A DNA stretch of 64,000 nt. Source: Escherichia phage ph0021. The translations under genes and the position numbers were made by a program. Under the pieces are notes generated by a model. The model did no database searches and was not told the DNA's origin. It saw only the letters and a program-made list of their open reading frames with translations. Positions 5,794-62,843 of the stretch are shown one piece after another (the first letter of the stretch is position 1; each line of letters starts with the position of its first letter). The DNA lies in the sequence record OP557970.1. The stretch is one strand, 5' to 3'.

Positions 5794-8760
5794 ATGGCTA
5801 CTTTAAAACAAATACAATTTAAAAGAAGCAAAACTGCAGGTCAACGTCCTGCTGCTTCAGTATTAGCCGAAGGTGAATTGGCTATAAACTTAAAAGATAA
5901 AACAATTTTCACAAAAGATGACTCAGGTAGTGTTATAGAATTAGGTTTAAAATATGGAGGAACAATTGATGGTTCTTTAACTGTTAATGGAAACATAATT
6001 GGAAATTTAACAGGTAACGCTGCAACTGCAACGAAATTAAAAACAGCACGAAAAATTAATGGTATATCCTTTGATGGGTCAAAAGATATCACGCTAACTC
6101 CATCTGACATAAATGTCAATAGCACAACGTTTATAAAAAATAACGGCGAATTACCTGTTGATGCTAATTTAGATGAGTATGGGCCTGTTGAAGAATATCT
6201 TGGAGTTTGGTCGAAAGCAACTTCAACCAACGCTCAACCAGCAAATAAATTTCCAGAAGAAAATGCTGTAGGTGTTCTAGAAGTATTTGTGGCCGGTCAA
6301 TTTGCTGGTACTCAGAGATATACAACTAGATACGGAAATGTTTATATTCGTTCCTTGACTGCTACATGGAACGGAGTAAATGGTCCGTGGAGTGTGTGGC
6401 GAAATATTCAATCCGGTACTCGTCCACTGTCAACAACAATTGATCTTAATGATCTAGGAGGCGCTGAACACCTTGGTTTGTGGCGAAATAGTTCAAATTC
6501 CATTGCTACCTTTGACAGAAATTTCCCAGAAGAGGGGTCGTCAGCTCAAGGTCTTTTGGAAGTATCTGAAGGTGGAAACTATTCTCGTACACAAAGATAT
6601 ACAACCAGATTTGGAGTTGTTTATACTCGCTGTCTTACTGCTGCATGGGATGCATCTGCGCCTAAATGGGGACCGTGGCAACAAGTCGGTAATGTCACAC
6701 CGGCGACTTTCTATGATGGAGATCTGAATGATTTTAAAACTCCTGGGTTATATAATATTTTAGGCACTGATGCCGTTATTAACTGTCCTACAGGTGAAGG
6801 TTTGCCGACTGTTATTGTTGGTTTGCTGGAAGTTAAACAGCGTGCTTCTGGCGGTGCTATTTTCCAAAAATTTACTACTGCCGGAACAGGTGCAACTACT
6901 CGCGATCGTATTTTTGAGCGTGCATATACTGGTGGTGCGTGGGGTGCATGGAACGAAGTATATACATCTTATTCTCTGCCAATTACTTTGGGTATGGGTG
7001 GTATTAAAGCTCAATTAGCGGAGTTAGATTGGCAAACCTTTGATTTTGTCCCTGGTAGTATGTTTAGTGTTCCTTTGAACAAAATAAAGAATATGCCCGC
7101 AAATATGGATTGGGGCACGATTGATGGAAACCTGGTTATGTTTTCCGTTGGTCCTAGCGAACACACTAGCACAGGACGTACTGTTCAGATTTGGCGTGGT
7201 ACTGTATCCCAGACAAACTACCGTTATTTTGTCGTTCGTGTATTCGGTAATTCAGGAAATAGAACTTGCACAGTTCGTCGTGTTGTTCTTGAAGACGGAT
7301 CACATACTTGGACTGCTAAACAAGATTTTAATGGCGCAGTTAACTTTAACTCTACTGTTAACCTTAATAACACTACCACATTTAAAACAGAAGTTAAATT
7401 TCGCTCATTGAATGCATTCCGTATGTATGGCGGAAAATTTGGTACATTTTTACGTAATGATGGAGAGAGTCTTTATATTCTTTCCACCGACGAAGATGAT
7501 CAAGATGGAAACTTTAATACAAATAGACCTTTCCGTTATGAATTAAGAACTGGTGATGTTACTTTAGGTGGTATTAGTGGTGCTAACGTTTTAAAATTAA
7601 AACGTGATTCTCTCACCGCATTTTTTGGTGGTGATATTAACATGAAAGGCTTGATGACTTTTGACGCCGGACGTTTAGGATCACGAGATTATTTTAAATT
7701 TAACCATTGGGGTGATAGTAATAATGCGCGTGATAACATTATTCAGTTAGAAGACAGCAAAGGCGCTCATTTTTCCACTGAACGTACTTTAGCGACTGGT
7801 GCAATTAAGACTAAATTTTTTGGTGAAATTGAATCCGATGGTAAATTGGTTATTAAACGTCCGGGTGATTCTATTGTATTATCAGCACCTGCTAATAATT
7901 CTTTGCATATTCGCGGTGATATAGACGGGACTGGTAACTGGTATATTGGTAAAGGTGGTACTGATAATGGATTAGCGTTCTATAGTTATGCTACTAATGC
8001 TGGTGTATACATTACAAACGCAGGAGATATCTCGCTAAGTCCAAAGGGTGCCGAAATGGCTCAGGTCAATAACGTTCGATTATATGTTCATGGTGAACGT
8101 TGGACCGCTAGTCAACCAGGTGATTGGGGCAGTCAGTGGCAAGTGGAAGCGCCAATATTCGTCGATCATGGTTATGTTGGATCAGATAGCTATTATCCAA
8201 TTATTAAAGGAAGAAGTGTAGTCACCAATCAAGGGTTTGTAACTGCCGTCGATCTTGGTATTCGTCGTGTCAATAACAATTGGGGACAAGCAATTATTCG
8301 TGTTGGATCTGCGGAGGCATCGCCAGCGGCTGGACACCCTAACGCGGTATTTGAATTTCATTACGACGGTACTTTCTATTCTCCTGGTAATGGTAACTTT
8401 AACGATGTGTATATTCGTTCCGATGGTCGTCTTAAGATTAATAAAAAAGAGCTAGAAAACGGAGCACTTGAAAAAGTATGCCGACTGAAAGTTTATATTT
8501 ACGATAAGGTTAAGTCTATTAAAGACCGTAGTGTTATTAAACGCGAAGTTGGTATTATTGCTCAGGATCTTGAAAAAGAATTACCGGAAGCTGTGTCTAA
8601 AGTTGAAGTTGATGGATCTGATGTTCTGACAATTTCTAACTCCGCTGTGAATGCTCTTTTAATTAAGGCTATCCAAGAAATGAGCGAAGAAATTAAAGAA
8701 TTAAAAACGCCTTTCTTCACTAAAATTGCTCGCAAAATTAGTAAATATTTTAAATTCTAA
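5794..8760 (+). CDS. 37: long tail fiber distal subunit gp37 with C-terminal intramolecular-chaperone-like region
   Basis: 988 aa; start [22 protein letters not shown]; C-terminal region after [22 protein letters not shown] resembles the cleaved C-terminus of T2-type gp37. Confidence 0.9.
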
Positions 8761-8794: not shown

Positions 8795-9595
8795 ATGGCA
8801 GTAGTTGGTGTTCCTGGTTGGATTGGTAGTTCATCCGTAAATGAAACAGGACAACGATGGATGAGTCAAGCGGCTGGTCAATTAAGATTGGGTGTTCCTT
8901 GCTGGATGAGTCAATTTGCAGGTCGCTCACGAGAAATTATTCATACACTTGGAGCAGACCATAACTTCAATGGTCAATGGTTCCGAGATAGATGTTTTGA
9001 GGCCGGTAGTGCACCTATAGTGTTTAATATTACAGGTGATTTAGTATCATATTCTAAAGATGTTCCTTTATTCTTCATGTACGGGGATACGCCTAATGAA
9101 TATGTTGTTCTTAATATTCATGGTGGTGTTCATATGTGGGGTCGTGGTGGTAATGGTGGATACACTCACTCAGGAGGCGACGGTAACGGTACACAAGGCG
9201 GTCATGTTATTCAAAATGATATCGGCGGACGGCTTCGTATTTGGAACTACGGTGTTATAGCTGCTGGCGGTGGCGGTGGCGGTGGTATTGCATATCGTCC
9301 ACACTCAGGGGCAAACTGGCAAGATATCGGTGGCGGTGGTGGTCGACCTTTCGGTGGCGCTGGCGGTGGCGGTTATTCCGGTGGTGCTGCTTCGTATGAA
9401 GGTCCGGGTGGTGGTTATGACTATGGTAACGCACACTCCGGCGCTGGTGGTAATGCTGGTGCTGCTGGTCAGAATGCATGGTCTGACGGCGGTAAAGTTC
9501 TTAAAGTTGGTGTTGGTGGTGCGTCTGGTCATGCAGTGTTTGGATCTTCTCCAACTTGGGGTGTTGTTGGAACAATTTACGGACCAAGAGTATAA
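8795..9595 (+). CDS. 38: tail fiber tip adhesin gp38 (T2-type, glycine-rich motifs separating variable segments)
   Basis: 266 aa; several GGGGGG/GxGGG islands; T4 gp38 is 183 aa whereas T2-type adhesins are about 260 aa. Confidence 0.88.
9256..9375 (+). repeat. imperfect (GGY)n codon repeats encoding the gp38 glycine-rich motifs
   Basis: Runs of ggcggtggcggtggcggtggt and ggtggcggtggtggt inside gene 38. Confidence 0.6.
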
Positions 9596-9625: not shown

Positions 9626-10282
9626 ATGGCAGCACCTAGAATATCATTTTCGCCCTCTGATATTCTATTTGGTGTTCTAGATCGCTTGTTCAAAGATAAT
9701 GCTACCGGGAAAGTTCTTGCTTCCCGGGTAGCTGTCGTAATTCTTTTGTTTATAATGGCGATTGTATGGTATAGGGGAGATAGTTTCTTTGAGTACTATA
9801 AGCAATCAAAGTATGAAACATACAGTGAAATTATTGAAAAGGAAAGAAATGCACGCTTTGAATCTGTCGCCCTGGAACAACTCCAGATAGTTCATATATC
9901 ATCTGAGGCAGACTTTAGTGCGGTGTATTCTTTCCGCCCTAAAAACTTAAACTATTTTGTTGATATTATAGCATATGAAGGAAGATTACCTTCAACAATA
10001 ACTGAAAAATCACTTGGAGGATATCCTGTTGATAAAACTATGGATGAATATACAGTTCATTTAAATGGACGTCATTATTATTCCAACTCAAAATTTGCTT
10101 TTTTACCAACTAAAAAGCCTACTCCCGAAATAAACTACATGTACAGTTGTCCATATTTTAATTTGGATAATATCTATGCTGGAACGATAACCATGTACTG
10201 GTATAGAAATGATCATATAAGTAATGACCGCCTTGAATCAATATGTGCTCAGGCGGCCAGAATATTAGGAAGGGCTAAATAA
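9626..10282 (+). CDS. t: holin T
   Basis: 218 aa, same length as T4 holin; N-terminal cytoplasmic region, single TM segment (VAVVILLFIMAIVWY), large C-terminal domain. Confidence 0.93.
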   Translation: MAAPRISFSPSDILFGVLDRLFKDNATGKVLASRVAVVILLFIMAIVWYRGDSFFEYYKQSKYETYSEIIEKERNARFESVALEQLQIVHISSEADFSAVYSFRPKNLNYFVDIIAYEGRLPSTITEKSLGGYPVDKTMDEYTVHLNGRHYYSNSKFAFLPTKKPTPEINYMYSCPYFNLDNIYAGTITMYWYRNDHISNDRLESICAQAARILGRAK

Positions 10283-33417: not shown

Positions 33418-33623
33418 TACAAAAAGCCTCTCTTGAATTCGACTTGCTTTTCACCATAATCATATCGAATCTCTGCATTAAATTCGACAGAACCATCTGC
33501 GTACATCATAAATGAATGCACAATAACTTCTGTAGACCATGGCTGTAATTCATATTTCTTCATTACATGTCGTGAAATGATAATATCTAAATCTTCATTC
33601 GGTTTAATCCAACGATTTAACAT
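33417..33623 (-). CDS. hypothetical protein
   Basis: 68-aa ORF directly downstream of an early promoter. Confidence 0.5.
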   Translation of the reverse strand: MLNRWIKPNEDLDIIISRHVMKKYELQPWSTEVIVHSFMMYADGSVEFNAEIRYDYGEKQVEFKRGFL

Positions 33624-33649
33624 AGTGCTCTCCTCTATAAGATAATTCT

Positions 33650-33679
33650 ATTATACCATACTCATTTTGATATGTAAAC
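33650..33679 (-). promoter_or_regulatory. T4-type early promoter
   Basis: GTTTAC, 18 bp spacer, TGG-TATAAT. Confidence 0.5.
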
Positions 33680-33689
33680 CATTTAAATG

Positions 33690-33712
33690 AAAAAGGACTC
33701 CCGAAGGAGTCC
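33690..33712 (-). terminator. rho-independent terminator after soc
   Basis: GGACTCC-CGAA-GGAGTCC stem-loop followed by TTTTT on the minus strand. Confidence 0.65.
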
Positions 33713-33718
33713 TTGAAT

Positions 33719-33962
33719 TTATTCACCAGTTACTTTCCACAAATCTTCATTTGCAGCAATCCATTCAGTACGTTGATTTTCTTCATATACTGTAGAATAT
33801 GCTGCTTTTTCTGAAGGGAACGTCTGGTAATGAGCACCAGAAATTTTGTGAACATCAGAATAAAGAGGGAAAGCTACAGAAATTTCTTTACCCTGAATTG
33901 TTACCACCATCAACTGCTTGGTCAAATGTTTTAATATTAACATAACCGCGAGTACTAGCCAT
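33719..33962 (-). CDS. soc: small outer capsid protein Soc, reading frame apparently interrupted
   Basis: ATG at 33962 gives MASTRGYVNIKTFDQAVDGGNNSG then a stop; a second frame from about 33900 gives ...GKEISVAFPLYSDVHKISGAHYQTFPSEKAAYSTVYEENQRTEWIAANEDLWKVTG, which matches the Soc C-terminus. Confidence 0.6.
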
Positions 33963-33978
33963 GTAATTCTCCTTTTAT

Positions 33979-34188
33979 TTAAATTACATGATTATTTATA
34001 ATAAATTCTCGCGGAACGTTAAAATACCCGATTTTAGTTAATATAACAACATCACCGTTAATAATTACCGGAGAATAATCTTCTGGAGCATTAAATTTCC
34101 AATGGGCTCTAATATTATATCCATCAGAACCAAATGCTCGAGTAGCCGGTCTCCCGGCTTTTTGCCACGCGTAGAAATCAAATTTCAT
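33979..34188 (-). CDS. hypothetical protein (soc-56 interval)
   Basis: 69-aa ORF; T4 has segF at this locus. Confidence 0.5.
   Translation of the reverse strand: MKFDFYAWQKAGRPATRAFGSDGYNIRAHWKFNAPEDYSPVIINGDVVILTKIGYFNVPREFIINNHVI
33993..34000 (-). promoter_or_regulatory. T4-type late promoter (TATAAATA) upstream of soc
   Basis: Exact TATAAATA on the minus strand about 30 nt upstream of the soc ATG. Confidence 0.55.
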
Positions 34189-34379: not shown

Positions 34380-34897
34380 TAATAACCTCGGTCTTGACGG
34401 GCGAAATTTTCGGCATTTTTCAGATAATAAAGTTTAAAGATTTCTTCTGCTGTAAGACCAAGACCCTGGAACATATTCAGAACGAAATGAAGAATATCAA
34501 TCATTTCAAATTTAATTTCTAACTGGTCTTGTGGAGACAAATCAGTAATCAGAGTTTCACGACGTTCACCATGCTGCGACTTCCAAGGTTTCCATACAGC
34601 AGATGCGTCTTTTTCACCATTACTCATACCACCAAGAGAAGTCAGAAGTTCACGGAATTCATCATCAATATAATCTTTCTGATTGCGTAGCCAATCAACA
34701 ACTTCACCGGCAGTAGCCAAGTCATCAGGATGACGATTATATTCAGGTTTATCTTTAGCTAAACGAACCTGTAAAGATTTCTGCATGTCAAGCATTACCT
34801 GTAGCGGGTCTTTTTCATCACCGAGAATATCCCAATACTCATTTTGAGCTTTATCAGCGCCTTCGATCAGTTGACTACATTCGTTGAAATGTGGCAT
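34379..34897 (-). CDS. 56: dCTP pyrophosphatase gp56
   Basis: 172 aa; MPHFNECSQLIEGADKAQNEYWDILGDEKDPLQVMLDMQ... matches T4 gp56 (171 aa). Confidence 0.9.
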   Translation of the reverse strand: MPHFNECSQLIEGADKAQNEYWDILGDEKDPLQVMLDMQKSLQVRLAKDKPEYNRHPDDLATAGEVVDWLRNQKDYIDDEFRELLTSLGGMSNGEKDASAVWKPWKSQHGERRETLITDLSPQDQLEIKFEMIDILHFVLNMFQGLGLTAEEIFKLYYLKNAENFARQDRGY

Positions 34898-34898
34898 G

Positions 34899-35549
34899 TT
34901 ATTTTTCCTTTCTTATGAAGTTTTCTATCATATGTCTATAGCAGATATTAGGATAACCTGCCTTGACAGCTATTTTATTAAATTTTGTGCGCTTAGGTCT
35001 ATTATTATAAACCCATAATTCATAAAGCGCATCATAACTATTCCATATTTCTCCTCGCCTAGGATTTGGTAAACCATATCGAGGTGAATTTTTACCGCTA
35101 AATCTTCCTTTTCGGGCTTTACTCATATTAGCCTTGGCTTCATCGGATATAATTTTACCTTTATGAGCTAGACGCATTTTGGCTTTAGTTTCTTCTGGGG
35201 TCTTTTTGCCTTTAATCCATGACGGCTTGCCATATCTAGGATTATTTTCACCCGAGAAAAGAACAGAGTTTTGGATTTTAAGGGTTTCTATTAATCTACT
35301 TGTTAATTTAACACCTTTATTATATCGCATTAAATTTACAGCATAATGCAATCCTCTCACATCTGGATATATTTTAGTTAATAATCTATGAGCTATAAAA
35401 TGCTCACGCGCAGTTAACTCAACAAGATTGTTTTTGTCATCTGCTCCTCCTATACATCTAGGAATTATATGATGACGTTCTTTATATCCGCCAAGATGCC
35501 GGCATTTAGCTTTTGTAATTAAAGCCGAGTAAATTTTTTGGTAATTCAC
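34899..35549 (-). CDS. HNH-family homing endonuclease with NUMOD-like DNA-binding repeats
   Basis: HNH core ERHHIIPRCIGGADDKNNLVELTAREHFIAH; repeated NNPRYGKPS / KNSPRYGLPN motifs with GK..SEE.K.K.S.A.KG spacing; freestanding between 56 and 61. Confidence 0.75.
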   Translation of the reverse strand: MNYQKIYSALITKAKCRHLGGYKERHHIIPRCIGGADDKNNLVELTAREHFIAHRLLTKIYPDVRGLHYAVNLMRYNKGVKLTSRLIETLKIQNSVLFSGENNPRYGKPSWIKGKKTPEETKAKMRLAHKGKIISDEAKANMSKARKGRFSGKNSPRYGLPNPRRGEIWNSYDALYELWVYNNRPKRTKFNKIAVKAGYPNICYRHMIENFIRKEK

Positions 35550-62332: not shown

Positions 62333-62627
62333 GTCCCATCTCCATATCAATTAAGTCATTTATTGTAGGTTCATTATATACTGTTTCTTCATCAGTGTAA
62401 ACCGGTTCTTCCGGCTCTGGCTCTACAGTTTCCCATCTAGCCGCCCACCAAGGTTTAACCCCGAAGCTTATTAAGTTCTTCATAATCAATCCAGGATTCT
62501 AATCCTGATGGCAAATCAGATTCAATTTCCCAAAGAAGTTCTTCAATTTTCTGAAGACGATCTAGTTCTTCGGCTGGAATAGTAACCATTGACGGAGTTC
62601 TTGATACACTAATATCGTAAATCATAT

Positions 62628-62843
62628 TTACCCCAATTTAACCATACAATCGCCGTATTTCCACTTAGAAATAGACTTTTCACCATTAGAATAATAAACT
62701 TCGAGTTTAGCACGATTATTTTTAATTTGAATAACCTTGGCTGTCATCAAAGTTCCATACCCATAATAAACTGCAACTTCATCACCTACATATACCGCGC
62801 TTCCGCGGTAATCATGAATATAGTCAGTTCCTTCGAGCATCAT
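62628..62843 (-). CDS. hypothetical protein
   Basis: 71-aa ORF with a 4-nt overlap with nrdC. Confidence 0.45.
   Translation of the reverse strand: MMLEGTDYIHDYRGSAVYVGDEVAVYYGYGTLMTAKVIQIKNNRAKLEVYYSNGEKSISKWKYGDCMVKLG

Follow-up and report, generated by a model that had tools for sequence, protein, structure and literature searches.

The soc gene in the 64,000-nucleotide stretch of phage DNA analyzed here (the window) is interrupted by a single additional A, which very probably represents a genuine insertion that created a soc-null allele in a phage expected to form viable virions whose capsids are less stable. The window matches Pseudomonas phage PsgM02F (OR584013.1), which has a T4-like (Tequatrovirus-type) genome, at 100% identity. 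An initial annotation, made from the sequence alone, had proposed that the soc reading frame is broken, and our analysis confirmed this: the ATG at position 33962 opens an ORF of only 24 codons, and the rest of Soc lies in the +1 frame. The features of the locus, together with the other coordinates used below, are listed in Table 1.

We examined the organization of the locus and its expression signals. The late promoter that the initial annotation had placed upstream of the ATG was recovered at 34000-33993, and an alignment showed that it is unchanged in phages JoYop, RB32 and JLBYU31 and in the Logan contig ERR11812349_27. The gene is located between gene 56/soc.1-soc.2 and the mrh genes, the same order as in JoYop, FriedrichMiescher, RB32 and the Logan contigs. 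Searches against the Pfam Soc profile (PF16855) divided the gene into two pieces: the 24-aa piece covers profile positions 1-15 with 19 bits, which is below the cut-off by itself, and the downstream 63-aa piece covers positions 18-74 with 139.5 bits (E = 5e-41). For comparison, the intact JoYop Soc spans positions 1-74 in one match, and the T4 Soc chains 5vf3 and 9mkb match the Soc profile at E about 1e-44. The window lacks a continuous soc ORF of about 77-85 codons that would encode the whole beta-tadpole fold. By sequence, synteny and expression signals, the locus is a member of the Soc family, yet it has no single intact ORF.

Two further observations concern the region past the gene. A near-consensus sigma-70 promoter (33650-33678, minus strand; TTTACA, a 17-nt spacer and TGnTATAAT, with 11/12 matches) is positioned directly 3' of the soc terminator and 5' of an mrh.2-like ORF. 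In addition, the 40-aa “hypothetical protein” annotated in GenBank at 33604-33726 on the minus strand covers the soc stop codon, the terminator and the sigma-70 promoter, and is probably spurious.

Table 1. Features of the disrupted soc locus and related features. Coordinates refer to the window unless a contig is named.
Feature	Coordinates	Strand	Basis or remark
T4-type late promoter TATAAATA	33993..34000	-	Read from sequence; falls within the 3' end of the soc.1-like gene upstream
Shine-Dalgarno AAGGAG	33969..33974	-	Sequence; 6 nt 5' of the soc ATG 33962
soc ORF1: authentic ATG and 24 codons MASTRGYVNIKTFDQAVDGGNNSG, then TAA	33888..33962	-	TAA at 33890-33888
Internal ATG	33908..33910	-	Annotation; GenBank start of the 63-aa “virion structural protein” WYA84090.1
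Lesion: AA in place of the single A of intact alleles	33901..33902	-	Alignments with JoYop, RB32 and JLBYU31
soc remainder in the +1 frame, …TIQGKEISVAFPLYSDVHK…WKVTGE and stop	33719..33900	-	Stop at 33721-33719
GGG TAA, the last sense codon of ORF1 and its stop	33888..33893	-	Sequence
Intrinsic terminator past soc: 9-bp stem AAGGACTCC/GGAGTCCTT, then a T run	33686..33714	-	
Out-of-frame soc ORF, 74 aa	33719-33943	-	100% identical to ph0021 protein
gp37, 988 aa	5794-8757	+	100% identical to ph0021 protein
gp38	8795-9592	+	100% identical to ph0021 protein
gp56	34382-34897	-	100% identical to ph0021 protein
soc with the extra A in Logan contig ERR11812349_27 (L023)	9940-10275		Contig coordinates

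Next to its intact relatives, the lesion is small and well defined. Where the intact alleles read GGT ACA ATT CAG GGT AAA, the window reads GGT AAC AAT TCA GGG TAA, that is, GGTACAATT has become GGTAACAATT, and a premature stop follows four codons past the extra A. The closest allele, the soc gene of JoYop, is intact with 80 codons, and the extra A is the sole difference between it and the window across the gene. The soc genes of RB32 and JLBYU31 have another 3' end and the same 5' half, and both read GAT GGT GGT ACA ATT CAG GGT AAA at this point. The initial annotation had left open whether the frame was lost through a 1-nt insertion or a 2-nt deletion. The alignments with JoYop, RB32 and JLBYU31 decide for the insertion of a single A; a 2-nt deletion was ruled out, since exactly one base separates the window from each of these three intact alleles, which belong to the same haplotype family. 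The junction had been placed at 33888-33905, and the extra A (33902/33901) indeed falls inside this interval. At the protein level, it affects the codons of the hairpin tip, where strand beta1 turns into beta2; this turn is the most variable part of Soc across homologues.

Residues 1-20 of ORF1 are native Soc and residues 21-24 are out of frame; the remainder, TIQGKEISVAFPLY…WKVTGE, comprises 56 undamaged codons in the +1 frame, and its DNA is 100% identical to that of JoYop soc. Ribosomes recruited by the AAGGAG/ATG start would thus be expected to read 20 native and four out-of-frame codons and to terminate at the TAA, and the remaining 56 codons, intact in the +1 frame, have no ribosome-binding site of their own. 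Full-length Soc would then not be made in normal amounts, so that heads should be viable, with Hoc and without Soc. Judging from the sequence, Soc is most likely missing from the virions. The downstream frame shows no difference from its counterpart in intact relatives, which indicates that the mutation is recent, and it is presumably tolerated because soc is dispensable.

The expected phenotype can be drawn from laboratory strains of T4, in which soc has been lost through amber and deletion mutations, including hoc- soc- display strains (Ishii & Yanagida 1977, as cited in PMC3012670 and PMC7602432) and T4ΔSoc (PMC10580926). In such soc-null T4, production and infectivity are unaffected, viability is lost at pH 10.6 and survival recovers about 10^4-fold when Soc is supplied (PMC3012670); Soc and gp24 together contribute thermal and pH robustness (PMC10580926). 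By analogy, the heads of the phage studied here would lose the Soc “clamp” that guards capsids when pH and temperature are high. Both cases concern loss of soc and the expected phenotype is alike (viable and infectious, with the capsid clamp gone and lower pH and temperature stability), but in the window a +1 insertion arose spontaneously in a T4 relative isolated recently, and was neither engineered nor selected. The loss of soc by itself is a routine loss of function, the gene having been known to be dispensable since 1977. It does have practical bearing: PsgM02F and Escherichia phage ph0021 have both been proposed for biocontrol or therapy, and a Soc-less capsid is expected to withstand heat and alkaline pH less well, a point to consider for formulation and persistence in the field. 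A natural soc-null relative of T4 would also be a ready recipient for Soc-fusion display.

Disrupted soc genes were also found in other public read assemblies (among them the Logan contig SRR29934094_45207 and the proteins P0014, P0023, P0021, P0017 and P0020). These are likewise single-base frameshifts in otherwise intact T4-like contigs; however, they are located at other sites, whereas the insertion in the window lies outside any run and is found again, unchanged, in a second lineage. For example, in the soc gene at 5920-6153 of SRR29934094_45207 (L024), the A5 run of GAAAAAGC, a classical slippage site, is one A short, and this 7-kb contig is otherwise intact. The resulting A4-run allele was not found among about 294 deposited genomes, and natural soc frameshifts were not found in a literature search.

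We considered whether the allele may be leaky rather than null. According to this explanation, which we regard as improbable, ribosomes would slip by +1 at UCA GGG UAA A, with tRNA-Gly re-pairing on GGU and retaining two of three pairs, and the phage would be partly decorated. The geometry resembles that of the “shifty stop” +1 sites, in which a repetitive last sense codon is followed by a stop codon and the ORF continues in the +1 frame; examples are CUU_UGA_C in prfB and CCC_UGA in E. coli pheL and in tsh of a Listeria phage. A comparable case is the “savior indel” with compensatory frameshifting in HSV thymidine kinase. The CCC_UGA sites, used by Listeria phages, shift at 1-15% in E. coli (PMC5009743). 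At the soc locus, too, the stop stands directly past the shift codon and the +1 frame continues (GGG TAA A), as in the prfB and CCC_UGA type. After a slip, Soc would continue as GGT AAA GAA, and the hypothetical product would be an 80-aa Soc of native length in which the loop NNS replaces TIQ (junction peptide TFDQAVDGGNNSGK; shift-site sequence TTCAGGGTAAAGAA / AATTCAGGGTAAAGAAATT). Only three residues would be altered, all in the hypervariable hairpin tip; no damage is seen in the downstream frame, and two lineages share the arrangement.

Several observations nevertheless speak against recoding. An undamaged downstream frame is expected equally of a recent mutation. On GGU, the tRNA-Gly species that reads GGG would form a wobble-position mismatch. 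Unlike the known sites, the shift codon here is GGG, and our literature search, which included the review PMC5009743, found no precedent for shifting at GGG_UAA. The locus also lacks a correctly spaced Shine-Dalgarno-like stimulator: the only such element, GGTGGT, precedes the shift codon by 9 nt, compared with 3 nt in prfB. We detected no stimulatory RNA structure either (fold z = -0.25 vs shuffled sequence). In addition, the arrangement is not conserved across homologues. About 360 deposited soc genes read as single ORFs, as judged from identity bands and annotation, and the two-frame arrangement was seen only in PsgM02F/ph0021 and in one Logan contig. Finally, a shift of 1% would be too little to supply about 870 binding sites. 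Overall, the locus is best classified as a null allele of soc that arose naturally by frameshift, and not as a programmed frameshift.

That the lesion occurs a second time is the only mildly surprising aspect of this allele. The Logan contig ERR11812349_27 (31.6 kb), from an unrelated, GiZh-like phage, carries the identical extra A on an RB32-type soc haplotype. Its identity to the window is 97% across the replication genes and falls to about 90% in the soc-mrh region; its soc gene equals that of JLBYU31 except for the extra A and one A fewer just past the stop. Apart from soc, every gene called on it is of the expected length, and 8 kb align to the window without a gap, so this assembly is not noisy either. 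A literature search found no mention of ERR11812349. The two haplotypes that carry the extra A differ 31 nt upstream and 75 nt downstream of the insertion, and each carrier keeps its own markers. Either the insertion arose twice, or recombination transferred a segment no longer than about 105 nt. Recombination is very active among T4-type phages, and such a transfer would have required co-infection by both lineages. The shared insertion suggests a mutation-prone site or short-patch recombination.

To assess how widespread the allele is, we searched deposited genomes and metagenomic collections. Among the deposited genomes, about 360 records contain this soc family, about 59 of them with the RB32/JoYop-type 5' half; the extra A was seen only in PsgM02F, as judged from identity bands and annotation. 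Neither allele of the DQAVDGG-type junction had a match in IMG/VR, in JGI metagenome contigs or in GTDB genome contigs. A search for related loci in IMG/VR recovered only 13 soc loci, none belonging to this allele type.

An identical non-homopolymer insertion in two lineages is unexpected for random loss, and may point to a hotspot, recombination or a maintained allele. The immediate sequence offers one candidate mechanism: the direct repeat GGTAA lies 12 nt downstream of the extra A (CAGGGTAAAG), and we conjecture that the A may have been templated from this repeat through transient misalignment. A bolder reading, for which we see little probability, is that the site is a recurrent and possibly reversible hotspot which, combined with low-level slippage at GGG_UAA_A, would turn capsid decoration on and off or dim it in T4-like phages. 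Such a switch would explain both the identical insertion on two haplotypes and the undamaged downstream frame. Should the site be a hotspot, it would be a small addition to the mutational-spectrum lore of T4.

The initial annotation had considered a pseudogene and an assembly error equally possible. The disruption itself stands, and the balance between the two does not: a genuine mutation is strongly favored by the clean Illumina assembly, by the allele of ph0021 and by ERR11812349_27. It is very unlikely that the phage DNA carries an intact soc and that the extra A came from base-calling, assembly or polishing. A one-base insertion at a non-homopolymer site is an atypical error for Illumina. 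PsgM02F was sequenced by Illumina MiSeq/NextSeq and assembled with Shovill (SPAdes and Pilon) at a stated coverage of 171,636x (PMC10815195); the chemistry, the very high coverage and the non-homopolymer site all speak against an artefact. In its favor, PsgM02F and ph0021 share one laboratory, one sequencing provider and one Shovill/Pilon pipeline. However, these are two separate sequencing projects that agree on the allele, and the same insertion is present in the unrelated contig ERR11812349_27, which was produced with a different assembler, without Pilon, and is otherwise gap-free over 8 kb.

As a further check of the assembly, we compared 118 annotated JoYop CDS with the window by tblastn. 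About 105 of them had full-length, single-frame, stop-free matches, including every large gene (34, 35, 52, rIIA, rIIB, 39, dda, 61, 41, uvsX, 43, 44, 45, 46, 47 and nrdD). In this screen of the window, only soc showed a frame switch with a stop, and the intactness of all other matched genes again argues against an artefact. Beyond the window, the structural genes are full length, with T4 lengths for Hoc (377 aa), gp23 (521 aa) and gp24 (427 aa).

A second frame switch, at 62612-62843 on the minus strand, was considered as another lesion of the window and rejected. The window has an intact 72-aa ORF there (MMLEGTDYIHDY…CMVKLG), and it is the corresponding JoYop gene, cm3_195 (OR769032.1, 119259-119492), that switches frame. 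JoYop has an A4 run where the window has A5, and the JoYop copy, not that of the window, looks frameshifted. As the window ORF is intact, this region gives no sign of indel noise in the window assembly.

The ph0021 allele was deduced from its annotation. The 74-aa “hypothetical protein” WAE77634.1 of ph0021 corresponds exactly to the out-of-frame window ORF 33943..33719 (MLILKHLTKQLMVVTIQGKE…). This ORF needs the extra A to exist, and ph0021 therefore carries the broken allele. Phage ph0021 (vB_EcoM_Uniso21, OP557970) is an E. coli isolate that was sequenced one year before PsgM02F by the same laboratory (PMC9692438). The gp37, gp38 and gp56 proteins of the window are also 100% identical to ph0021 proteins; within a 15-billion-protein collection, the gp37 shared by PsgM02F and ph0021 is the only member of its 90%-identity cluster and is otherwise unique. 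Based on these four identical proteins, gp37 among them, the two records probably describe the same phage. If so, the assignment of Pseudomonas as host deserves scrutiny, and cross-contamination is one possibility. Given one laboratory and one pipeline, the two records constitute a replicate measurement and not independent lineages. In GenBank, both are annotated with fragments only (63 aa in PsgM02F, 74 aa in ph0021), and the records should flag soc as disrupted.

The two annotated fragments also raise the question of whether a shortened protein could be functional. The 74-aa ORF was rejected as a real gene: its ATG at 33943, annotated in ph0021, is 26 nt from the soc Shine-Dalgarno sequence and has none of its own, and its first 13 codons are out-of-frame soc. 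With regard to the 63-aa fragment, it is hardly credible that ribosomes terminating at TAA 33890 reinitiate at ATG 33910 and produce a truncated Soc that binds capsids: this ATG is 20 nt upstream of the ORF1 stop, a distance within reach of termination-reinitiation, and the product matches Pfam Soc positions 18-74, but the ATG has no Shine-Dalgarno sequence (it is preceded by AAGCAGTTG) and the product would be devoid of the YVNxKT motif and of strand beta1. Within this motif, Y7, V8, N9, K11 and T12 are invariant across distant Soc proteins. We took the fold from reviews and from an AlphaFold model of Soc, which places beta1 at residues 7-17, the turn at 18-20 and beta2 at 20-30 with moderate confidence (pLDDT 72.6). 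Because beta1 in this model and the invariant Y7, V8, N9, K11 and T12 all precede the internal start, the 63-aa product would lack a conserved core strand. Strand beta1 is the partner of beta2 in two elements of the fold, the head sheet and the trimerising hairpin (PMC7602432, a review).

The surroundings of soc also differ between the window and its relatives. A homing-endonuclease ORF (CDS0167) lies between gene 56 and gene 61, at about 34899-35549 on the minus strand, and is absent from JoYop and from the Logan contig ERR11812349_27. Beside it, gp56 is only 70% identical to that of JoYop, compared with 99-100% for soc.1 and soc. Judged by sequence identity, the soc locus adjoins a sharp mosaic boundary.
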